From: Candidatus Magasanikbacteria bacterium RIFOXYC2_FULL_42_28
GTDB lineage: Bacteria > Patescibacteriota > Patescibacteriia > Magasanikbacterales > GWA2-37-8
Length of the DNA: 64,000 bases
Assembly: GCA_001784435.1 (NCBI GenBank)
Contig: MFQZ01000010.1
Coordinates: 105,960 to 169,959 of the forward strand
Reading direction: 5' to 3'
The first letter of the stretch is position 1. The number at the start of each line of letters is the position of its first letter. The notes under the pieces were generated by a model. The model was not told the DNA's origin. It did not search any database and saw only the letters and a program-made list of their open reading frames with translations. The position numbers and the translations under genes are program-made. Below, piece after piece: positions 2,286-64,000 of the stretch.

Positions 2286-2356
2286 ATTGTCATTGCGAAC
2301 GAAGTGAAGCAATCTAACGTTGGGATTGCCGCGTCGCTACGGCTCCTCGCAATGAC
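2286..2356. repeat. family B palindromic repeat (ttgtcattgcgaRcgaagYgaagcaatc ... tcgcaatgacaa)
   Basis: Inverted-repeat element; related copies at 14922-15009, 22973-23002, 31028-31056. Confidence 0.7.
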
Positions 2357-2369
2357 AAATAAAAAAACT

Positions 2370-4826
2370 ATGTTAATTTCCTATAATTGGCTCAAAGAGC
2401 ATTGTGATTTACCGGCCGGGTTAACTCCGGCGGAATTAGGCGATAAATTTAAATTGGCAGTGGTTGAAGTTGAAAAAATTGTGAGCGAAGGTGAGAATTT
2501 GGAAAATATTGTCGTGGGCAAAGTGGTGTCGGCTGAGAAACACCCCAATGCTGATAAATTAAAAGTTTGTAAAGTTGATGCCGGTGGTGAATTGGTTCAG
2601 GTAGTGTGTGGTGGATCCAATGTTGCCGAAGGAATGCTCGTGGCGTTTGCGCCGATCGGTGCGAAAGTGCGCTGGCATGGGGAAGGGGATTTGGTGGAAT
2701 TAACCGAAGCGACTATTCGGGGCGAAAAATCATATGGCATGATTTGCGCTTCTACTGAAATTGGTTTGGGCGAAAAATTCCCGCTGAAAGACGAAAAAGA
2801 AATTTTAGATTTGACTTTTTTGAAATTAAAAGTGGGAACGCATTTGAAAACTGCTCTGAAATTAAACGACGCAGTTTTAGAAATTGACAACAAGTCGCTT
2901 TCGCACCGTCCGGATTTATGGGGGCACTTGGGTTTGGCGCGCGAGGCGGCCGCTTTGTTTAGTCGTCAATTGAAAGAATTGAAATTAGGGAAAATTAAGC
3001 CGGGCAAAAGTGTTTCTCTGTCGGTAAAAGTGGAAGATACTAAATTGTGTCCGCGTTATTTGGCGGTTGCGCTCGCCGGTATAAAAGTAGCGCCGTCGCC
3101 TGATTGGCTGCAGAGCCGATTGTTGACGGTGGGAATTAACCCCATCAATAATATCGTGGATATTACCAATTATGTCATGTTGGATTTGGGGCAACCGATG
3201 CACGCCTTTGACGCTTCGCGTATTGCTGTCATCCCAACGAAAGTCGGGATCTCTGTCCGTCTTGCAAAATCCGGTGAAACCATCGTCGCTTTAGACAAAA
3301 AAGAATACAAATTAACTGAAAATGATTTGGTAATCGCCACTGCCGAGCGTCCGATTGCTATTGCCGGCGTGATGGGCGCTTTGAATAGCGGAGTAACCGA
3401 CGCGACGGAAACTATTATTTTTGAATCAGCTAATTTTAATCCGGTGAGTGTGCGTAAGACCTCCACGCGTTTAAATTTGCGTTCGGACAGCGCGCAACGG
3501 TTTGAAAAATCCTTGGATCCTAATTTGTGCGAAATCGCGTTGCAAAAAGCCGTGGCCATGACTTTGGAAATTTGTCCGGGCGCGTCGGTAGCGAGCAAGG
3601 TTATTGATGAAAAACATTTTTCTCTATTCACCGGACCGCTCTTAATGCCGAAAAATATTTTTGAAAAAAAATTAGGCGTGGTTATTCCGCCCAAAAGAAT
3701 TAAAGAAATTTTAGAAAAATTGGGGTTTGTCGTTACTGAAAAAAAAGACGAATTGTCAGTCAAAATTCCCACTTGGCGCGCGACCAAAGATATTGCCATT
3801 GCCGAAGATATTGTGGAAGAAGTGGGGCGGATTTACGGTTTTAGCAATATTCCCGGCACGTTACCAACATTCCCGATTACTCCGGCTAGTTTAACACCGG
3901 TGCAAAAATTACAGCGCACGGTAAAAGATGTTTTGGTGCGCGAGTTGGGTTATTCGGAAATGTATAATTATTCGTTCGTGAGTGCGGAGCAAATTGTTCG
4001 TTCCGGAGATAACGTGGCAAACTATTTAGAGCTGGACAATCCGATTTCCAAAGAGAAACCATTTTTGCGGAGAAATCTGCTTTTAAATTTAATGGAAAAT
4101 CTTGAAAGAAATATCAATTCGGCTGAAGTAATAAAATTATTTGAAATTGGCAAAATATTTCAACCTGAAGAAGCCGGGCCACGCGCAGACAGCAACGGTG
4201 ATGAATTATTGCCCCGTCAAGATACCTGGTTGGGCGCAGTTAACGTAGAAAAAAAGAATGACACTCCTTTTTGGGAAGCGCGACGAGTCGCCGAGATTAT
4301 CACTCGCGAGCTTGGTGTTACAGTCAAATTTGTGCCAGGAGAAACTCTTTCGATGGCGCCTTATCAACATCCGGGGCGGACTGCTTGGATTTATGCCGGC
4401 GATAGTTTAGTCGGACGAGTGTGGGAGCTGCATCCGAAAGTTGCCGCTAATTTTAATTTTCCTTACCGGGTGGGTGTGTGTGGTTTTAACCTAAATATTT
4501 TGGCCGATAAACAGAGGGAGGCCCGCATTTTTAAACCGTTGTCACTGTATCCAGAAGTAAAACGCGATGTTGCTTTTGTCGTGTATACAAAAATTGTTCA
4601 TGTGGAAGTTGAGAAAGCGCTTGCTGGAATTGATCCGCTTGTGAAAGGCGTAGAATTGTTTGATGTATATACTGGCAAGAATTTGGGCGCAGGCAAAAAA
4701 AGTATGGCCTATCGTTTAACACTTTTAAATTCCGAGCGGACTTTGGAGTCCAAAGAAGTGGATGTGGTGATGGATAAGGCGACAAAAATGTTAGTTGAAA
4801 ATTTTGGGGCGGAGATGCGGGGGTAA
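2370..4826 (+). CDS. pheT: phenylalanine--tRNA ligase beta subunit
   Basis: Starts MLISYNWLKEHCDL; B3/B4, tRNA-binding and FDX-ACB-like regions; upstream ORF extension to 2304 is encoded by a repeat and rejected. Confidence 0.9.
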   Translation: MLISYNWLKEHCDLPAGLTPAELGDKFKLAVVEVEKIVSEGENLENIVVGKVVSAEKHPNADKLKVCKVDAGGELVQVVCGGSNVAEGMLVAFAPIGAKVRWHGEGDLVELTEATIRGEKSYGMICASTEIGLGEKFPLKDEKEILDLTFLKLKVGTHLKTALKLNDAVLEIDNKSLSHRPDLWGHLGLAREAAALFSRQLKELKLGKIKPGKSVSLSVKVEDTKLCPRYLAVALAGIKVAPSPDWLQSRLLTVGINPINNIVDITNYVMLDLGQPMHAFDASRIAVIPTKVGISVRLAKSGETIVALDKKEYKLTENDLVIATAERPIAIAGVMGALNSGVTDATETIIFESANFNPVSVRKTSTRLNLRSDSAQRFEKSLDPNLCEIALQKAVAMTLEICPGASVASKVIDEKHFSLFTGPLLMPKNIFEKKLGVVIPPKRIKEILEKLGFVVTEKKDELSVKIPTWRATKDIAIAEDIVEEVGRIYGFSNIPGTLPTFPITPASLTPVQKLQRTVKDVLVRELGYSEMYNYSFVSAEQIVRSGDNVANYLELDNPISKEKPFLRRNLLLNLMENLERNINSAEVIKLFEIGKIFQPEEAGPRADSNGDELLPRQDTWLGAVNVEKKNDTPFWEARRVAEIITRELGVTVKFVPGETLSMAPYQHPGRTAWIYAGDSLVGRVWELHPKVAANFNFPYRVGVCGFNLNILADKQREARIFKPLSLYPEVKRDVAFVVYTKIVHVEVEKALAGIDPLVKGVELFDVYTGKNLGAGKKSMAYRLTLLNSERTLESKEVDVVMDKATKMLVENFGAEMRG
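3227..3261. repeat. family A repeat (tgtcatcccaacgaaagtcgggatctctgtccgtc) in frame inside pheT
   Basis: Matches intergenic copies at 27772, 30744, 15337; encodes VIPTKVGISVRL within the PheT B3/B4 region. Confidence 0.7.
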
Positions 4827-4830
4827 TTGT

Positions 4831-4868
4831 TTGTCATTCCGACCGAGTGTAGCGAGCGGAGGAATCCC
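4831..4868. repeat. family A-like repeat (ttgtcattccgaccgagtgtagcgagcggaggaatccc)
   Basis: Sequence similarity to the other tgtcatYccga...ggaatc copies. Confidence 0.6.
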
Positions 4869-4889
4869 TTAGTATTTAATAATTTGTGT

Positions 4890-5585
4890 ATGGTCAAGCC
4901 GTTGGGTTTTAATGTTACAAAAGAAGTATTAAATTTGGGCGTAAAAGTTATTACAGCTCGAATTATCGGAGTAAATAATTCTGAAATTAATCAAGATTTT
5001 GAAATTTATAAGAATGAAGAATTAGAGAATATAAAGAAGAAATTAACTGGTAAAAATTACAAAGATGATCCGATATTACAAGGTTTTCGGGATCTTCATA
5101 CTAAAGTTGGCAGAAGCAACCGTGATTATGTCGCCTCGCCAGAGGGATTACGACGTTTATTTTTGGAGCGATCGCGATTTCCACACATTAATACTGTTGT
5201 TGATATATATAATTTAGTTTCATTAAAAAGTGGGTTAGCATTAGGGGCGCATGATGTTGATAAAATACAAGGCAATGTAAAACTTTGCCTTACCAAAGGG
5301 GATGAAATTTTTATTCCACTCGGCGCGGACAATCAAGTTGCTGTTTTTCCGGGTGAGTATTGTTATGTTGACGATGGCAACAATGTTATTTGTCGGCTCG
5401 AGGTTCTCCAAGTGGAACCAACAAAAATTACGACCAGCGCCCAAGATATATTTATCATTGTTGAGGGTAATGCTAATACGTCGTTTGAATATGTAGCGGA
5501 AATGGCCAAAGAGGTGTGTACTCTGATAAAACGCTACTGTGGTGGCGATGTTTCTTTTTTTCCACAGGCCGCTATTGACACGTGA
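4890..5585 (+). CDS. stand-alone B3/B4 tRNA-binding domain protein
   Basis: VVDIYNLVSLKSGLALGAHDVDKIQG resembles the PheT B3/B4 motif (NNIVDITNYVMLDLGQPMHAFD in the pheT here); start moved to ATG 4890 downstream of the repeat. Confidence 0.55.
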   Translation: MVKPLGFNVTKEVLNLGVKVITARIIGVNNSEINQDFEIYKNEELENIKKKLTGKNYKDDPILQGFRDLHTKVGRSNRDYVASPEGLRRLFLERSRFPHINTVVDIYNLVSLKSGLALGAHDVDKIQGNVKLCLTKGDEIFIPLGADNQVAVFPGEYCYVDDGNNVICRLEVLQVEPTKITTSAQDIFIIVEGNANTSFEYVAEMAKEVCTLIKRYCGGDVSFFPQAAIDT

Positions 5586-5625
5586 TGTAATCAGTGATAT
5601 TCTATCAGTAGTTCATTATCATAAA

Positions 5626-5785
5626 CTATTTATCAAGAAGAGACGAGGGAATTGGCCCGTTGACTCTCTACCAACCTAACTTCGGTTAAGGTGGTAATTC
5701 CAAACCCATTAGGGGAAAGATATGTCTTCCGGCACTGCCGGAAGAAAATTAGATTTCTTATCCTTGGGTAAGATTTTTTTTATTG
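5626..5785 (+). promoter_or_regulatory. SAM-I (S-box) riboswitch aptamer plus hairpin/T8 terminator
   Basis: TTATCAAGAAGAGACGAGGGAATTGGCCCG...CAACC...GGTGGTAATTCC...GAAAGATA matches the SAM-I consensus (UUAUCAAGAGNGG.GGAGGGA.UGGCCC...GCAACC...GGUGCUAAUUCC); followed by hairpins and TTTTTTTT at 5774-5781. Confidence 0.65.
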
Positions 5786-5883
5786 TTCTTTAAAATGGTT
5801 GTTGACAGCCACTCGCGCCTTACCCATGGTGGGTTGGGCGCGATCGCTGTTGGCAACTTACACTTTAAGAGGAGAGTTTGAAC

Positions 5884-6681
5884 ATGGGGTTTCCGATTTG
5901 TATCGTGAGCGACTGTGGCGGTCAGGCCATGGAGCGTATGGTTTTGCGCTTCGCAACTCTTTTTCCCGGTGCTACGATTGCGAGGATTTTGTCATCCTCC
6001 GCGGTCGAGGCCTCCGGCAACATCGTTGATGCGGTAGATGCGATGTCTGGTGGTCCTGGAATCGTGGTGTGCAATTCGGCACCTCGCAAGGATCATCGCG
6101 GGACCAACGGTAGCGCGATCGTTTTTGGCAAGATCGCCCAGGTTGGTATCGTCGTGACCGCCGGGACGCTTGGCCTGGTCAAGAAGATGTTTCCGGGTCT
6201 CTCTGTCGCGGAGGTTGATGCCGATAGTTTCATGGTGAACACCTACCCTGAGGTCGGTCGCGGCACTTTCAACTTTCGTGGTTTGGAGGTGATTCCACGC
6301 CTGGCGCACCAGATCGTTGCTGGTCGTGATCTGAGCCACTTGAGCGTGGAGCACAACCACTTCCCGGCGGTGGAAGATGGTGTCTGGCTGATTGACCAGA
6401 TCGCGGGTGTGCCCACCAACTTGAAGCTCACTGTGCGGAGGAGCGATCTGCTCGGTTTTCAAGTCGGCGCGGTGGCGTCTGTCTCAATCGCTGGCCAGAC
6501 GTACCAGATCGGATGCTATAATCGGCTGACGCAGATCCCCGCCGGCGAGCTCGGCATCTATGAAGGTAGCTCTGGCTTTGGCCACGAGCGGTTCCTCGAG
6601 ATTGCCGTCATGGGTGGTTCTGCCGCCCAACAGCTCCACGTCAACGATTCCGGCACGTCCGTGTCGATCTCCATCCTCTGA
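5884..6681 (+). CDS. SAM hydroxide adenosyltransferase family protein (DUF62; fluorinase/chlorinase-like SAM hydrolase)
   Basis: C-terminal signature GIYEGSSGF..FLEIAVMGGSAAQQLHVNDSGTSV matches the DUF62 ..GS.G.LEIAVN.GSAAE.L.V..GD.V motif; N-terminal ICIVSDCGG resembles I.L.TDFG; RBS AAGAGGAGAG before ATG 5884; gene is about 58% GC against a 40% background. Confidence 0.7.
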   Translation: MGFPICIVSDCGGQAMERMVLRFATLFPGATIARILSSSAVEASGNIVDAVDAMSGGPGIVVCNSAPRKDHRGTNGSAIVFGKIAQVGIVVTAGTLGLVKKMFPGLSVAEVDADSFMVNTYPEVGRGTFNFRGLEVIPRLAHQIVAGRDLSHLSVEHNHFPAVEDGVWLIDQIAGVPTNLKLTVRRSDLLGFQVGAVASVSIAGQTYQIGCYNRLTQIPAGELGIYEGSSGFGHERFLEIAVMGGSAAQQLHVNDSGTSVSISIL

Positions 6682-6848
6682 AGTTCTGCCTCGTCGGTCG
6701 GCGAATAGACCGGCAAAGTGCGCCACACACTTTCTAAAGTGGCATCTCAACTTGTGCACAAACGAGGCGAAAAATCGATCATAACTTGATTGATTTTTTG
6801 TTTAAAAATAAATATCCCCAGCTTGACGTTCGCCACCACTTGATTTTT

Positions 6849-6858
6849 GTGGTATAAT
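6849..6858 (+). promoter_or_regulatory. possible extended -10 promoter (TGgTATAAT)
   Basis: tgtggtataat about 100 nt upstream of ORF 6959; followed by 5'UTR hairpin atgctgaa..ttcagcat and RBS AAAGGAGGA. Confidence 0.3.
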
Positions 6859-57603: not shown

Positions 57604-60600
57604 ATGCGTCAACCGCCTAAAAAATTAGGTCTTTCGGCACTGTTAGCGATGTTTGTCGCGACCACGATGTTTGGTTCGCTTTTTACTTTAACTCCGGCGC
57701 GCGCGCAATGGACGATTGTTGGCGACTTACCGCGTATGGCGACTGAAATCGGTGAAAAAATCAAAGAAGGATTGGGTGTCGCGGTTTTAAATGGCGCGTT
57801 GCGAGCGGTTTCATACGCGGCGCGTAAAATCGCTTATGACGCGGCCGTATGGGTGGCATCGGGTGGCAAAGGTCAACAGCCGTTGGCTTTTAGCAAAGGG
57901 TTTGGCGCTTATATGAAAGATGTGGGCTCGGCGTCGTTTGGCGAAGCCGTGTCTTCAATCGAAGATCAATTTGGCGTAAGCATCTGTCAGATACCGGACG
58001 TAAAATTGGATTTGGCTTTACGGATTGGCATTCGCGGGTTAAACACGGTTGAACCTAAACGGCAAGGAGATTGCGATTTTCAAACATTTACGAAAAACTG
58101 GAGTTCGGAAAATTTAAAAAGTAAATATGGCTCTGTTGAGGGCTTAACTAAACAATTTAACGCGTCGCTTAAAACCGAGAATACGGATTTTGGTGTTTAT
58201 TTGGACTCGGTGGCTAAAATTGATGAATATACTAAAAAAAGCCGTGAGGCCTTGCTTTTGGATCGTCAAGAAGGCCAGGGAACAAAAAATTTAACCGATT
58301 ATGTTTCCGGTAATATTTTGACACCAGCGCAACAAGTTAAGAAATTTATTGATGATAACAGTGTGGGCGAACAGCAAAAAGCCGATCAAGCCACCATATA
58401 CTCGGCGATTGGGAGCGGTTTTGTCCAGGTGATTCCTTCTACCATCTCAATGTTTTTAAACACTTTGGCCGGCACGATGCTGAAGAATTTTATGACTAAT
58501 GGCACGTTGCCGTTTGGTTTGGGTTGCGTTGGCGAGAATAATAAAGATTGTTTGGGTGGTAACCCGGCGGAATTTGCCGGTAGTGGCGCGCGCGGTGGTC
58601 GGCAAGCGGCGCAAGCCGTGTTTAGCGAGTTGCTTGTTCCAACGATTAATCCAAACATTAGTTTTGATATTGTCGCCGAATTAAGCAGTTGTCCGGACAC
58701 GCCGTCGGCGTTTAATTGCCGAATGGATGGGGATTTAGTCGCCGCGCTTCAAAGTGCCTTTATTGTCGGTGGAGAACCGATGACCATAAGGGAGGCGTTA
58801 GATAAAGGTTATTTGCATAAAGATTGGCGCTTGTTGCCACCAAGTCGTCCGGAAAATCAAATTGATCGGGCTTATGAAACCGCCTATACTTATGCCAATA
58901 TTAAGGCCTTGCGTTTGGCGCGAATTTTGCCACTTGGTTTTGAAATTGCGGCTTTGGAAAGCGACCCTGATAATCCCTGGAAATTAGGTGAAGTGGTGGG
59001 CATGGAAGAGGGTGATGGCACCGGTTGGGAAGATTGCACTGATGTTGATAATAACGGCACCCCCGAATATGACGCCGCCAAAAAATTCTGCCACTTAATT
59101 GATCCTAATTGGATTTTGAAAGCGCCTAAAAGTCGGTGCAATGCTTTTGTATTTGGCAATCAACCGTTATCCGGTGGTGTGCCTAATCGCCTACAAGAAT
59201 GTGTTGATTTGAGCAGTGTGGTGGCTTACAATTCCGACAAAACGCCTTTGTCTTATGCCTATTGCGCGCGCGAAAAAAATGTTTGGAAATCAAACGCCGA
59301 CACTTGCGATAGTCAATACGCCACCTGCTTGGCTTACACCGCGCCCGATGGGCAACAGGTTGGGTATTTACAACGTACTTTAAATACCGGCAATTGCGAT
59401 GCCAGCAATGTCGGCTGCAGTGCTTATAGTTTAACGCAAAATTCCTCTGGAATTTGGCAACAGCCGGCGTTTGATGCAACTTTGGCGAATTTTAATCGGG
59501 GCATTCATTTTAATAATAAATTATCGTCAGCTTGTAGCGCCAATTCAGCCGGTTGTTCAGCATTCACATTGGCCGGCAATTTCCCCCCTTCTGCCCGAGG
59601 AGGGGGCGAGGGGGTGGTGGGAGCATTGTATTTACGTAAAGCCCCGGATTATTTAGGATGTTATGACGCCGAACCGGCCGTCGCGGGTGTAAAATGGCCG
59701 ACCACCACCGCTGAATTATCAATTATTGCTGTTAACAAAAAACCGCAATGCGCCGATTATTCCCAAGCGTGCATTCCGAGTGAAGTTGGTTGTAATATGT
59801 TTACGGCTGTAAAAAGCGGTTGGCAGATACCGGGCAAATTTACACCAGCGACGATTAAAAGTGACGGCACCGGCATTGAAAAATGGAACGACCAGTGTGA
59901 TGCCAAATGCGATGGTTATGATGGCTATGTCCGTTTGGCTGATAATTATTCCAGCAGTTCACCTGTGGATTATATCATTCCGTCCACCAACGCGACTTGC
60001 GCCCGAGAGGAAGTCGGTTGTACCGGTTTCACCAATATGAGCGCGGTATATGAGGGTGGGGAACAGGTGGAATATTTCTCGCTGTTGCGTTCGTGTATCA
60101 AGCCGGACGCGACTAAGCAAAAGAATTTTTATACTTATGAGGGCTCAACTTTGGGCGGGTATCAATTAAAGGTCTATACTTTGGAAAAAGATGAGGAGGG
60201 CGGGCCGAAATATTTTTATAAAGATGATGCCGAGCGCCTTACTTTTAACCAGCTTTGCAGTGAAGAAAAATACAAAGATAATACCGCCGCGACCGATTGT
60301 CGACAATTTAACGATGACCAAGGTGCTGTTTACTACCGTTTATTAGGTAAAACAATTGTCGTTTCGGACAAATGCACGCCTTATCGGTTAAATTCCACGG
60401 AAATGGAAATATCAACGCCAGGGAGTGAAAAATGTTTCCAAAACGGTGAATACAAAGATGGCTTTTGCTATTACAATGGCTTACCGGGTGGAGTGATCGC
60501 GTCCGAAGGCCAAAGTAATTCTTGTAGCGCCACGGCAGAGTCCTGCCACGCCTATAAAGGCAACGCCGGCAACAATATTGAAAATGTAGCCAGTTTAGAT

Positions 60601-63600
60601 TTTGAAAATTCGGATACGCCTTTAAGCGGTTGGAACTCTGGCGCGGTGTTATCAGTTGAAAGTACCAAAGTGGGCGGGCATTCGGTTGGTTATGTCGGCA
60701 ACGGCGCTTTGGAGTGGAGCGCGCAAGCCGATGATTCTGATACGGTTGGCTTGGTTACCAGCACCAGTTACTCTTTAAGTTTTTGGGCCAAAGGCCGAGT
60801 GGGTGGCGATGGTAATTTAAATGTTATTTTGGCCGGTGTGTCACTCGGCACAATCCAACTAAGCGATGTTTGGCGATTGTATGAATTTGGCGCCAAACAG
60901 ATTGTTAGCGGTGCTAACGCTAAATTGATTATCAACAATTCTGCGTCGGTCGCTAAAACAATTTATTTGGATAATTTACATTTAACCAAAGTAGTGGATT
61001 CGTTGTATTTAGTGCAAAAGAAATTAACCGTTGACCCGTTGTGCGACAGTAATTTAACCGATAATTTACCCGGCGAAGCGCTGGGGTGCAAGGGCTATAC
61101 CGTGCCGGATGTTTCCGCTACTTTTTATCTTACCAATTTCAGTTATTTATGCCGTGAAAACGCGATTGGGTGCACGGCTTTGATTGATACGCAGAATACT
61201 TTGGATACGGATAAGCCCAAGGCGTATAATGTCCAGTTGTTCGGTGGTAGTGGTGATTTAGTGCGGGTGGTAATAGAAGAGAAAGAATTTTCTTGTCAAA
61301 TTTTGGTGGGGGAAGACAAATGTCATGTAGATATTGACGGATTTGAAAAACTATTAACTGGCGGTATTAGCGGGGCGTTTGTTGACAGTATTGAGGAAGC
61401 AAAAATTGAATATAAAAATAATGTTGGGACGTGGATAGAATATTATCCCCAAAAAGAACCTGAATTTACCACTTCCACCGCCTTTATTCCCGCCGACACC
61501 GCCACTTCCACTCCAATCTATTTAGTCGCCAATAAAGAAGCCACCTGTAATCAAGTTGATCTCGGTTGTACTTACGCCGGCCTTCAAAAACAAACTCCCA
61601 CCGGTATTCAATTTACCACTGTTACTATTAAAAATGACCCAGCGCAATACGACGCGCAAGGCGGTGGTACTCTGTGTCAAGCCGAAGCGGTGGGGTGCAA
61701 CGCCTATACTTCCGGTGCCGGTAGCACCTATTATTTCAAAGATCCGATTGCTACCGGTCAAAAAGTTTGCGCTTACAAAGCGCGCGCGACCGCCCTTGGA
61801 TCGGACGCGTCCGGTTGGTTTTGGAAAGATGTGGGACGATGTGGTGGTGCTGATACTGGCGCTTACTGTTCGTCCAATTCTGATTGCGCGGTTGGAGTTG
61901 GTTGTGATAAAACACAAGATTGGGCTTGTTACCCGGATTATCGGTTAAGCGGTAATGATTTTGGCCTTTGGTCTTATGGCGATCGGACAAAATATCAAAA
62001 TTTCGTGGGGGAATGTCCTACGGCTCAAAGTGGTTGTACTGAATTTATTGATCGCAACGCCTCGGATCCGGCAACTGATTTGGCCTACACTTCGTATTTT
62101 TGGATAAAAAATAGCAAAATTGACTATGATACTTGCGCTGGTAAAGTAAGTTTAAGAGAGGGATGTGTTTTGTTTGACGAGACCGATGTTCCGCGCAAAC
62201 AGTGGAATATGGTGGCCAGTTACGAAGCCAGCGAAAACAACGACTCGCGTTTGACCGCGCCGGTTGATGTTAGCGGTCGCAATGATGCTAACCAAATTAT
62301 CAAAGTAACGCGCGACCGCGAGTGTGGTGAATGGTTGCAGTGTAAACGTTCGCATTCGGTTTTGGATACCAGCCAAAGTCCGGTCGGTAATAATATTTTC
62401 AAAGAAGTGTGCGAGGCGGTAGGTCGATGTGACGAAGGGCCAGCGGATAGTGGCGGAGACAGTATCACCAATTGCGGGCGTTTTGTGTCCGCGCCGTCAA
62501 AAGTTTTGACAGTAGAGGATTATCGTCGGCGCGATATTAATTGGGGTGGCATGGATTATTCTGGGTATTCTCTTTTGAATATGTATCAACCGGACGCGTT
62601 GGAACAATTTAATATCAGCGCTACCACTCGACCGGATTGGCGTTTAGTAAAACGAGTCCAATGTACGGCCGGTTTCGGCACCGAACAAGTGTGTCTTCCG
62701 CCCGCGCAAAACAATTCGTATGGCTGTAAAGTCAAGTATGGTGCGTCGGCAATTTCAACTGATGATGTGAGGTGTGCCAACAATGCTGTTTGTCGTAATC
62801 AAGTTTGTGTTCAAACTCATCGGGGCGATGATGATTTTGATGGTCCAACCGTTCCCGCTGAATCCAATTATACCGAAAATAAATTAGAGCCCGCTTGTCG
62901 CGCTTATCCGGAGGTTGATGCGCCGTTTCCGACCACACCGCAAATTAGTGGATCTGATCTGACTAACGCCTCCTCATTTTATCAGGCGGCGAATAAATGT
63001 AACGAAGCGATATCCGGCACGCGCAGTTTCACCTTGGATTGGGCCTGCGAGTGTGATTACACTAAAGTAACTTATGGTGAAACTCAAGGACTAAAACGCT
63101 ATTTTAATTATTTGGAACCAAACAGTCGCGCGACCGAACCGGGTGTGCCGGTTGGCATTTGCCAAAATGGTAATGTGGGTATTAGTTGTAGCACCGATGC
63201 CGAATGTCAAGTTGGTGGCGCTGTTGGTGGTTTTTGCGCTCTGAAACAAAAAGAATCCAAACTGCTTGGTTGGCGCGGTTATTGTTTGGAGCCGGATTAT
63301 TCGCGCTTGGCTTTTGCCGACCCGAATAAATATGCCTGTTTGTCGTGGTTGCCGGTGGGTTCATTGTCTGGTTTTGCCGATATTGACAACCAACATTTGG
63401 AAGCGGGGTATTTGCCAAGTGAGCAATTGCGTAGTTTGGGCTATACGCCACAAGGTGATGATTTGTTTGGGCAGTTTTATTGTCAGCAGTCAACCCGATT
63501 TGATAATTTGCTAGTTAATCGCGATGGTTCTAACGCTATCAAGGTAGATACCGCTAATGTTGATGATTGCTATAGTGATGATGTGAGTGTGGCCACACCG

Positions 63601-64000
63601 CATTCGCTGTTAAATAATTTTTCTGTTAGTACTAATATTATGCCAGATTTGAGTGCGCGCTGTTTCAATATAGCCAATACACAAGAAACAAATTTAAAAC
63701 AATCAGACATAGAGTATATTAAATTTACTGTGGCGGAAAACACTGATGAAAGTCCAAAACAGAACACTAATTTATTTATTTACCCCAATGTTTATAAGAA
63801 TGACAATAAACCGTATATTGTCGGGCATTTGCCACTTAAAGGAGATAGTAGTAAAAGTGGTATTTATGTGGCTGGTAATTTTATGGGCAAAAAGAATTTG
63901 CCGGCGTTCTTTTATAGTTCACAGAAAGATGATAAGGACGGCGACGGGACGTATGGCTACATTAATGACGAAGGGGTTTTGAGTGTAAAATACAAAGAAG
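57604..64000 (+). CDS. giant Cys-rich secreted protein (>2130 aa), 3' end beyond window
   Basis: No + strand stop in this frame to the window end; spot translations at 57604, 60001, 62401 and 63967 are all open; signal peptide MRQPPKKLGLSALLAMFVATTMFGSLFTLTPARA; many Cys pairs. Confidence 0.7.
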   Translation, partial: MRQPPKKLGLSALLAMFVATTMFGSLFTLTPARAQWTIVGDLPRMATEIGEKIKEGLGVAVLNGALRAVSYAARKIAYDAAVWVASGGKGQQPLAFSKGFGAYMKDVGSASFGEAVSSIEDQFGVSICQIPDVKLDLALRIGIRGLNTVEPKRQGDCDFQTFTKNWSSENLKSKYGSVEGLTKQFNASLKTENTDFGVYLDSVAKIDEYTKKSREALLLDRQEGQGTKNLTDYVSGNILTPAQQVKKFIDDNSVGEQQKADQATIYSAIGSGFVQVIPSTISMFLNTLAGTMLKNFMTNGTLPFGLGCVGENNKDCLGGNPAEFAGSGARGGRQAAQAVFSELLVPTINPNISFDIVAELSSCPDTPSAFNCRMDGDLVAALQSAFIVGGEPMTIREALDKGYLHKDWRLLPPSRPENQIDRAYETAYTYANIKALRLARILPLGFEIAALESDPDNPWKLGEVVGMEEGDGTGWEDCTDVDNNGTPEYDAAKKFCHLIDPNWILKAPKSRCNAFVFGNQPLSGGVPNRLQECVDLSSVVAYNSDKTPLSYAYCAREKNVWKSNADTCDSQYATCLAYTAPDGQQVGYLQRTLNTGNCDASNVGCSAYSLTQNSSGIWQQPAFDATLANFNRGIHFNNKLSSACSANSAGCSAFTLAGNFPPSARGGGEGVVGALYLRKAPDYLGCYDAEPAVAGVKWPTTTAELSIIAVNKKPQCADYSQACIPSEVGCNMFTAVKSGWQIPGKFTPATIKSDGTGIEKWNDQCDAKCDGYDGYVRLADNYSSSSPVDYIIPSTNATCAREEVGCTGFTNMSAVYEGGEQVEYFSLLRSCIKPDATKQKNFYTYEGSTLGGYQLKVYTLEKDEEGGPKYFYKDDAERLTFNQLCSEEKYKDNTAATDCRQFNDDQGAVYYRLLGKTIVVSDKCTPYRLNSTEMEISTPGSEKCFQNGEYKDGFCYYNGLPGGVIASEGQSNSCSATAESCHAYKGNAGNNIENVASLDFENSDTPLSGWNSGAVLSVESTKVGGHSVGYVGNGALEWSAQADDSDTVGLVTSTSYSLSFWAKGRVGGDGNLNVILAGVSLGTIQLSDVWRLYEFGAKQIVSGANAKLIINNSASVAKTIYLDNLHLTKVVDSLYLVQKKLTVDPLCDSNLTDNLPGEALGCKGYTVPDVSATFYLTNFSYLCRENAIGCTALIDTQNTLDTDKPKAYNVQLFGGSGDLVRVVIEEKEFSCQILVGEDKCHVDIDGFEKLLTGGISGAFVDSIEEAKIEYKNNVGTWIEYYPQKEPEFTTSTAFIPADTATSTPIYLVANKEATCNQVDLGCTYAGLQKQTPTGIQFTTVTIKNDPAQYDAQGGGTLCQAEAVGCNAYTSGAGSTYYFKDPIATGQKVCAYKARATALGSDASGWFWKDVGRCGGADTGAYCSSNSDCAVGVGCDKTQDWACYPDYRLSGNDFGLWSYGDRTKYQNFVGECPTAQSGCTEFIDRNASDPATDLAYTSYFWIKNSKIDYDTCAGKVSLREGCVLFDETDVPRKQWNMVASYEASENNDSRLTAPVDVSGRNDANQIIKVTRDRECGEWLQCKRSHSVLDTSQSPVGNNIFKEVCEAVGRCDEGPADSGGDSITNCGRFVSAPSKVLTVEDYRRRDINWGGMDYSGYSLLNMYQPDALEQFNISATTRPDWRLVKRVQCTAGFGTEQVCLPPAQNNSYGCKVKYGASAISTDDVRCANNAVCRNQVCVQTHRGDDDFDGPTVPAESNYTENKLEPACRAYPEVDAPFPTTPQISGSDLTNASSFYQAANKCNEAISGTRSFTLDWACECDYTKVTYGETQGLKRYFNYLEPNSRATEPGVPVGICQNGNVGISCSTDAECQVGGAVGGFCALKQKESKLLGWRGYCLEPDYSRLAFADPNKYACLSWLPVGSLSGFADIDNQHLEAGYLPSEQLRSLGYTPQGDDLFGQFYCQQSTRFDNLLVNRDGSNAIKVDTANVDDCYSDDVSVATPHSLLNNFSVSTNIMPDLSARCFNIANTQETNLKQSDIEYIKFTVAENTDESPKQNTNLFIYPNVYKNDNKPYIVGHLPLKGDSSKSGIYVAGNFMGKKNLPAFFYSSQKDDKDGDGTYGYINDEGVLSVKYKE
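59581..59623. repeat. family C repeat in frame inside the giant protein
   Basis: ttccccccttctgcccgaggagggggcgagggggtggtgggagc encodes FPPSARGGGEGVVGA. Confidence 0.7.

Follow-up and report, generated by a model that had tools for sequence, protein, structure and literature searches.

The S-box regulon of Firmicutes places methionine and cysteine biosynthesis, metK, methionine transport and methylthioadenosine salvage under S-adenosylmethionine (SAM)-sensing leaders of the SAM-I family (RF00162), which act as terminator-type OFF switches. Canonical DUF62 enzymes cleave SAM to adenosine and methionine (bioRxiv 10.1101/2025.08.29.672840, citing Kornfuehrer 2020 and Eustaquio 2008; PMC12120602). 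The canonical enzymes of Salinispora, Sulfolobus and Haloferax are specific for (R,S)-SAM, and a role in (R,S)-SAM repair has been argued for (bioRxiv 10.1101/2025.08.29.672840), although another paper doubts that hydrolysis of (R,S)-SAM is what these enzymes do in the cell (PMC12120602). Here we describe a locus that joins the two in a 64,000-nucleotide (nt) stretch of Candidatus Magasanikbacteria bacterium RIFOXYC2_FULL_42_28 (contig MFQZ01000010.1, positions 105,960 to 169,959; hereafter the window, with positions counted from its first letter). A SAM-I riboswitch lies at 5627–5726, upstream of a plus-strand gene (5884–6681, starting with ATG at 5884) for a 265-residue, divergent DUF62-fold protein of a family specific to the Candidate Phyla Radiation (CPR, Patescibacteria). 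The aptamer family, the terminator/antiterminator logic with an antiterminator over the 3′ side of helix P1, and the sense of control (expression at low SAM or methionine) are those of the S-box regulon, whereas the controlled gene is of a SAM-cleaving type and the host is a CPR bacterium with reduced metabolism. Literature searches found no paper linking a DUF62 protein or SAM hydrolase to a SAM riboswitch, and nothing relevant on metK in CPR. SAM-I, the DUF62 fold and leader-peptide attenuation are each of a known kind; what is new is the pairing of SAM-I with a DUF62-fold gene, a CPR branch of that fold with a different catalytic constellation, an apparent class of Met-codon attenuators upstream of its relatives, and the physiological inference drawn from them.

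An Rfam scan matched SAM-I at 5627–5726 with 63.3 bits, well over the gathering score of 44.4 (E = 2.4e-12), along the full length of the model (1–108), confirming the aptamer that an earlier note on this DNA had recognized; it is the sole riboswitch that the scan returned in the whole 64-kb window. The aptamer forms a four-way junction of helices P1–P4 and follows a sigma70-like promoter at 5575–5603 on the plus strand (TTGACA, a 17-nt spacer and an extended TG-TATTCT; 10 of 12 positions agree with the consensus, and a TG precedes the −10 hexamer), whose predicted transcript start is near 5610. Downstream lie a short GC hairpin at 5728–5742 (UCCGGC-ACU-GCCGGA), present in both predicted states of the leader, and an intrinsic terminator at 5756–5781, made of a 7-bp hairpin (5756–5773, loop CUUG) and a U8 tract (5774–5781). 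The U8 tract ends 102 nt before the ATG, in agreement with the same note, which had placed terminator-like hairpins and a U8 run about 100 nt upstream of the gene. Translation would start from a Shine–Dalgarno sequence, AGGAG at 5870–5874, 9 nt before the ATG. The layout with the short GC hairpin recurs at three homologous loci (L145, L142 and L137; L numbers denote homologous loci throughout).

The two switching states of the window's leader are thermodynamic fold predictions throughout. Folded alone, the segment after the aptamer formed the hairpin at 5728–5742 and the terminator stem at 5756–5773 beside the U8 tract. When the whole leader was folded without constraint, P1 and P4 were lost and 5704–5718, the 3′ side of P4 and P1, paired with 5754–5769, a stretch that takes in the terminator's 5′ arm together with its loop. 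This ligand-free alternative, with its antiterminator at 5704–5769, had a minimum free energy of −47.8 kcal/mol compared to −42.2 kcal/mol for the aptamer-plus-terminator form. Terminator and antiterminator are thus predicted to exclude each other, and the antiterminator shares nucleotides with the 3′ side of P1. Because the predicted antiterminator uses the 3′ strands of P1 and P4, which SAM binding sequesters, binding would favor the terminator. As modeled, the expression platform is the classical S-box OFF arrangement, and the riboswitch very probably works as an OFF switch for gene 5884–6681.

Ten distinct orthologous loci have SAM-I in front of this gene, and such conservation indicates that the pairing is not accidental. 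Upstream regions of the orthologues scored 57.6 bits (L142), 46.6 bits (L140), 44.4 bits (L002), 44.1 bits (L141), 43.3 bits (L001, equal to L081 and L082), 43.2 bits (L146) and 30.6 bits (L137), and L145 scored 39.8 bits with a covariance model that we built from the window and L142 on a hand-written structure. Our model also gave 42.7 bits for L010, a 35%-identical homologue from a metagenome-assembled genome (MAG) labeled Saccharibacteria, where the Rfam model gave 31.6 bits (E = 3e-5); a regular expression for the SAM-I core was crude and served as a cross-check only. The leaders fall into two architectures, one like that of the window and the other with a hairpin of 40–50 nt inserted in P2, and this insertion caused MAFFT alignments of all aptamers to misalign the two. 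When seven of the leaders were aligned under guidance of the model, 96.7% of cells were paired and eight pairs had changed on both sides; none of 500 shuffles reached the observed covariation score, and slid controls paired at 39–50%. The four-helix junction P1–P4 is therefore kept by compensatory changes in the relatives, a result that is supportive but not independent since the seven-leader alignment was fitted to the model.

Public gene calls at L140:249–1307 (P0004, 352 aa) and L146:350–1333 (P0013, 327 aa) run 60–90 residues N-terminally through SAM-I, so that the riboswitch is annotated there as coding sequence. Loci with the P2 insertion also carry an open reading frame (ORF) of about 100–130 aa with no Pfam match 3′ of the gene (L141:1339–1710, L144:910–1278, L146:1344–1736 and L140:1372–1677). 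The gap to the gene is about 2–65 nt, three of these four loci having one of no more than about 10 nt; the two are possibly co-transcribed.

Most other sensor-bearing members of the family are preceded by a different device, a short ORF rich in Met codons. We scanned 148 loci for short ORFs with at least four Met in seven codons and based our census on 140 of them, those for which 150 nt or more was available upstream. Met-rich leader ORFs with runs of four to six Met codons were present in 61 of these 140 homologous CPR loci, compared to 11 loci with SAM-I (12 with L010, found later) and six with a run of three Met. Almost all of the Met-rich short ORFs lay on the gene's strand, 84–258 nt upstream of the DUF62-like gene, and of 3330 control windows taken from other parts of these loci, just 7 reached four Met. 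Runs such as MMMSMMM and MMMAMM are encoded in the leader regions L143:1955–2100, L147:712–850, L051:3847–3975, L029:3818–3945 and L072:3841–3960. The exchange reaches into the window's own 50%-identity clade, in which three members without SAM-I (L138/L139, L143 and L147) have a Met-rich short ORF and a strong terminator instead; one such leader of the clade reads MNFLQLQTLATSQMMMAMMNLLRRRCGFWMR, followed by CCUCCGCCGCAAGCGGAGGUUUUU.

These leaders have the further predicted parts of an attenuator. A hairpin and U run followed 43 of 45 distinct leaders, 40–70 nt past the last Met codon and mostly past the leader stop codon. An alternative structure formed between the last Met codon and the terminator paired about 90% of the terminator 5′ arm (41% in shuffled controls), with a median folding free energy of −17.8 versus −9.7 in shuffles, and in 34 of 42 leader loci at most 5 of 100 shuffles were equally stable. 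Leader, terminator and alternative antiterminator thus occur together in the homologous loci, as distinct from the window. The same parts are found in the trpL, hisL, pheL, leuL, thrL and ilv leaders, which likewise combine a short ORF bearing a run of codons for one amino acid, a terminator further on and an alternative hairpin that sequesters the terminator 5′ arm; the leaders described here differ in their Met codons (MMMxMM) and CPR hosts and in mostly lacking a Shine–Dalgarno motif, some of them looking leaderless. At L051:3815–3850 the leader ATG lies about 9 nt past a −10-like hexamer (TTGACC, 17 nt, TAGCAT), a spacing that suggests leaderless translation of this peptide. No Rfam family matched the Met-leader regions, and full-text literature searches returned no description of a methionine leader-peptide attenuator. 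Judged by their architecture, the Met-codon leaders look like an undescribed class of ribosome-mediated attenuator that would sense Met-tRNA charging. Exchange of sensors (T-box, riboswitch, leader peptide) at orthologous attenuators is known, the same gene coming under different sensors by lineage and all of them ending in a terminator (Naville & Gautheret 2010, PMC2965389). The family studied here follows that pattern, with the difference that the exchange is between SAM-I and a Met leader peptide, in one protein family and even within a 50%-identity clade.

The product of ORF 5884–6681, which includes ...YEGSSGFGHERFLEIAVMGGSAAQQLHV..., has a counterpart of 100% identity at NCBI, annotated as hypothetical, from Candidatus Magasanikbacteria RIFOXYC2_FULL_42. 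Its score against Pfam PF20257 (SAM_HAT_C) was 23.3 bits, under the cut-off of 25.5; PF01887 (SAM_HAT_N) gave no match at E up to 1, an NCBIfam search gave no match, and a single-sequence phmmer search of the PDB returned nothing relevant. Among 59 family members, 57 matched PF20257 at E up to 0.01 (best 4.6e-11) and none matched PF01887 at the same threshold. An AlphaFold (AF2) model built from 24 homologues reached a pLDDT of 93.4 and a pTM of 0.91, and in a Foldseek search of the PDB all 37 significant matches were structures of DUF62/SAM hydrolases, fluorinases or chlorinases (probability 1.00, E from 1e-14 to 1e-9, TM score 0.60–0.74, identity 13–21%). They comprised the DUF62/SAM hydrolase entries 2zbv, PH0463 (2wr8/1wu8), MJ1651 (2f4n/22uy) and 2cw5, fluorinases (1rqp and others) and the chlorinases SalL and ClA1/2, with 6ryz and 7ccg also among the matched structures. 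The protein thus has the two-domain fold common to DUF62 proteins and halogenases. Comparison of a profile of the 59 members with one of 20 canonical DUF62 proteins by hhalign gave a probability of 98.3% for a local alignment that covers the C-terminal half only (122 columns), and 99.0% for a global alignment of 239 columns, in which the N-terminal mapping is forced and of low per-column confidence.

Comparison with described members of the superfamily places the family apart from them. With the canonical DUF62/(R)-SAM hydrolases (PH0463, 2wr8; MJ1651, 2f4n/22uy; TM, 2zbu; StDUF62; SaciSAMH) it has in common the two-domain fold (TM score about 0.7), a homologous C-terminal domain (hhalign 98–99%), the ribose Asp, the DxFGN-type Asp/Asn and the S-G..LEIA motif, but it has no PF01887 match, lacks the Asp-Arg-His catalytic triad, has invariants of its own and is largely confined to CPR. 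The fluorinase FlA and the chlorinases SalL and ClA1/2 have the same fold, and they too lack the hydrolase triad; identity to them is 14–21%. A search of 1.84 billion proteins placed 576 representative clusters in the family (E up to 1e-3), almost entirely from CPR MAGs. Many MAGs titled “uncultured Gammaproteobacteria” or “Pseudomonadales” (for example L006, L007, L013, L015, L019, L020 and L025) carry the gene in CPR-like contexts, and these labels look unreliable. Given the absence of PF01887 from all 59 members, the loss of the canonical catalytic signature and the near-exclusive CPR distribution, the family is a distinct, CPR-centered branch of the DUF62 superfamily and not a canonical SAM hydroxide adenosyltransferase. 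The earlier note had called the protein a DUF62 enzyme, subject to a match with the DUF62 profile. Taken literally, that comparison goes against it, PF20257 being below threshold and PF01887 absent; at the level of the superfamily the assignment holds, by fold and by profile–profile comparison. The label of SAM hydroxide adenosyltransferase needs correcting, both on those thresholds and for the missing triad.

In canonical enzymes the Asp-Arg-His triad (D68, R75 and H127 in PH0463) is proposed to activate water. The canonical TFHGRD aligns with (N/Q)-F-R-(G/S)-(L/F)-E in the family, so that the catalytic His is replaced by an invariant R132, and no His is invariant anywhere in the 59 members. 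The canonical VVDPGVG aligns with N-x-A-P-R, the Asp being replaced by A66 (or N64), in the N-terminal half of the alignment where confidence is low. The family has its own invariant residues (N64, A66, P67, R68, N75, G76 and R132), and R18, R22, K181 and R236 are invariant or nearly so; the invariant Arg residues in place of the triad might form an anion site. By contrast, the adenosine- and methionine-binding motifs are kept: a ribose-binding D10 (assigned by motif position only), the DxFGN-type D171 and N179, and GSSG..LEIA, with DxFGN and GSSG..LEI aligning with their canonical counterparts. D10, D171, N179, S229 and G231 are invariant in the 59 members and S230 and E239 nearly so; the window's clade has a four-residue insertion within the DxFGN motif.

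From the promoter, the aptamer, its alternative folds, the protein fold and the conservation of the riboswitch–gene pairing, all established computationally, we infer the ligand response, the substrate and products, and the purpose of the system as follows. When SAM is plentiful, the bound aptamer would lock P1 and P4, allowing the hairpin at 5756–5773 and the U8 tract to halt transcription short of the gene; at low SAM, the P4 and P1 3′ strands would instead serve as an antiterminator by pairing with the terminator 5′ arm, and the gene would be transcribed. Its product would break the C5′–S bond of SAM, of the (R,S) epimer or of an imported analogue, giving L-methionine and an adenosine-type product, and methionine would thereby be supplied to a methionine-auxotrophic CPR cell running short of it. 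The family would then be a methionine-starvation gene, for which the Magasanikbacteria clade has come to use SAM-I as its sensor instead. We regard this whole chain, methionine-releasing SAM cleavage included, as moderately likely. Cleavage of SAM is suggested by the DUF62 fold, by the retained adenosine and methionine motifs and by the activity of the canonical relatives. As for purpose, a SAM sensor and a Met-tRNA sensor, unrelated to each other, both call for expression when methionine or SAM is low, which would be explained most simply by a product that supplies methionine. The strongest support for this purpose is the Met-codon leaders in the wider family, which report low Met-tRNA charging. 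The salvage step that the earlier note had offered as one option gains support from these attenuators and from metG (methionyl-tRNA synthetase), which in five loci follows the family gene at a distance of 87 nt (L132:2070–3608, L117 and three others).

Several observations weigh against this interpretation. The Asp-Arg-His triad of the canonical SAM hydrolases is not conserved in the family, and hydrolysis is for that reason not assured. No recognized sensor precedes 62 of the 140 homologous loci, and an SD-like motif was found in only 7 of 43 leader ORFs, a scarcity that leaderless translation of the leaders may explain. The stem of the window's terminator has just 7 bp, one of them G-U, and is weak; its switching is predicted from thermodynamics only. 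Finally, an enzyme that cleaved active (S,S)-SAM while SAM was low would deplete it further, by positive feedback. The scheme is fully consistent only where methionine is what the cell controls, which the leader peptides imply, or where the substrate lies outside the pool of active cofactor, such as the inactive epimer used by canonical DUF62 enzymes.

That last difficulty disappears if the protein is a damage-control enzyme of the canonical DUF62 kind, restricted to hydrolysis of the inactive (R,S)-SAM epimer, whose purpose would be to remove a harmful by-product rather than to supply methionine. The family has the fold of the (R,S)-SAM-specific enzymes of Salinispora, Sulfolobus and Haloferax, and recycling of an inactive epimer at low SAM would restore methionine and SAM without paradox. 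However, one would expect an enzyme devoted to detoxification to be expressed constitutively or on high SAM, not under methionine starvation, the catalytic triad of the canonical enzymes is absent, and the importance of (R,S)-SAM hydrolysis to the cell is itself disputed (PMC12120602); we consider this explanation unlikely. Slightly less probable still is that the enzyme is not a hydrolase at all, A66 or N64, R68, R132 and further basic residues forming an anion pocket from which the adenosyl group would pass to an anion such as phosphate (giving AMP and methionine), or the reaction running in a MetK-like, SAM-forming direction. The invariance of R68 and R132, the conservation of R18, R22, K181 and R236, the lack of a conserved His and the position of R132 at that of the catalytic His are all consistent with such a pocket; the halogenase relatives SalL and FlA, which use anions and are reversible, offer a parallel, and the S-box regulon classically includes metK. 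On the other side, the proposal is purely inferential, prompted by the altered active site, a methionine-consuming enzyme induced by a methionine-starvation leader would be counterproductive, and synthesis of SAM from adenosine is thermodynamically unfavorable. The earlier note had also raised the option of an enzyme running in reverse, for which we found no support.

The remaining alternatives concern the RNA and not the chemistry. The riboswitch could be a relic or the source of a separate short RNA, with the gene transcribed from its own promoter within an inserted GC-rich cassette; the roughly 100 nt between terminator and ATG, a jump in base composition at about 5797 and a TTGACA at 5803–5808 would fit such a history. 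Yet no −10 element follows this hexamer and the promoter scan reported none, SAM-I precedes the same gene in the 10 loci and two architectures described above, and an equally long, hairpin-bearing spacer is also found in leader-peptide loci, making a relic very improbable. An ON switch, in which SAM would induce an enzyme that consumes its own excess, would make homeostatic sense for a SAM-degrading enzyme and was another option of the earlier note. We consider it even more improbable than a relic: SAM binding would sequester the P1 and P4 3′ strands on which the antiterminator depends, the ligand-bound fold leaving the terminator free and the ligand-free fold covering its 5′ arm, and the relatives with leader peptides are predicted to respond to low methionine. 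Methionine supply through SAM cleavage under an OFF switch remains the reading we prefer.

The stretch between terminator and ribosome-binding site holds a long GC-rich hairpin at 5797–5858 (+; 26 bp, −40.3 kcal/mol), with which the GC-rich segment begins. Long, stable hairpins in the same position, between attenuator terminator and ribosome-binding site, occur in riboswitch-type and leader-type loci of the window's clade (L010:831–880, L138:3925–3978, L143:2120–2172, L147:885–935 and L142:335–378), and their sequence is not conserved between loci. The hairpin could be an mRNA stabilizer, a processing site or a second control point. The TTGACA at 5803–5808 was considered as an internal promoter and rejected for want of a −10 element or a call in the promoter scan. 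A minus-strand “terminator” call at 5745–5725 was also rejected, being the plus-strand hairpin read backwards at a place where no minus-strand gene ends. Downstream of the gene, a weak 8-bp AT-rich hairpin with a U run at 6774–6799 (+), read from the sequence, is the likely terminator, and the promoter scan placed a promoter-like site of the next gene at 6830–6858 (+); gene 5884–6681 therefore appears to be a single-gene transcription unit.

Base composition sets the gene apart from its surroundings. Its GC content is 58% compared to 43% in the flanks, with a GC3 (third codon position) of 0.68 (window 5797–6760), the composition jumping at about 5797. In all seven measurable loci of the window's 50%-identity clade (the window, L002, L137, L138, L140, L141 and L142) the gene lies 10–20 GC points above its flanks, whereas the median excess in the whole family is only 1.4 points. 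This suggests a GC-rich cassette that spreads horizontally, or unusual codon selection.

Clustering of neighboring ORFs across the family revealed no widely conserved partner, the largest cluster spanning nine loci, and operon context is therefore of little functional help beyond metG and tandem paralogues. The latter occur in seven loci (L009:4902–5723 and six others), where another copy of the gene follows after about 113 nt. In L137, some 1 kb beyond the riboswitch-controlled homologue, is a gene (5068–5955) whose product has a homocysteine S-methyltransferase domain (PF02574). No conserved natural-product biosynthetic neighbors were found near family loci, and a motif search found no MetK motif within the 64-kb window. 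Elsewhere in the window, a full-length pheT (2304–4826) is followed, from its stop codon, by a gene for a 252-aa free-standing B3/B4 domain protein (4827–5585; PF03483, E = 2.7e-21) that may be a trans-acting paralogue of an editing domain. An ORF of at least 2135 codons with a signal-peptide-like start runs off the end of the window (57604–64000) and looks like a giant CPR surface protein; being truncated there, it is missing from the list of ORFs.

The role of DUF62-type enzymes is debated, and two unrelated sensors, each acquired more than once by one gene family, provide a regulatory, organism-level argument for methionine recovery in CPR. For Patescibacteria, in which native regulation is almost unexplored and tools for inducible expression are wanted, the loci also add a riboswitch-regulated gene and an apparent class of leader-peptide attenuators. 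The altered active site makes the family a candidate for new SAM chemistry. There is a small chance that it represents a new catalytic type within the DUF62 fold, controlled by a methionine leader attenuator across CPR, in which an Arg-rich pocket (R68 and R132, with N64 and A66) would pass the adenosyl group to an anion and release AMP and methionine in one step, or would provide a route between SAM and methionine that is independent of MetK. If AMP and methionine were indeed formed in one step, a nucleotide and an amino acid would be recovered together in organisms able to make neither.

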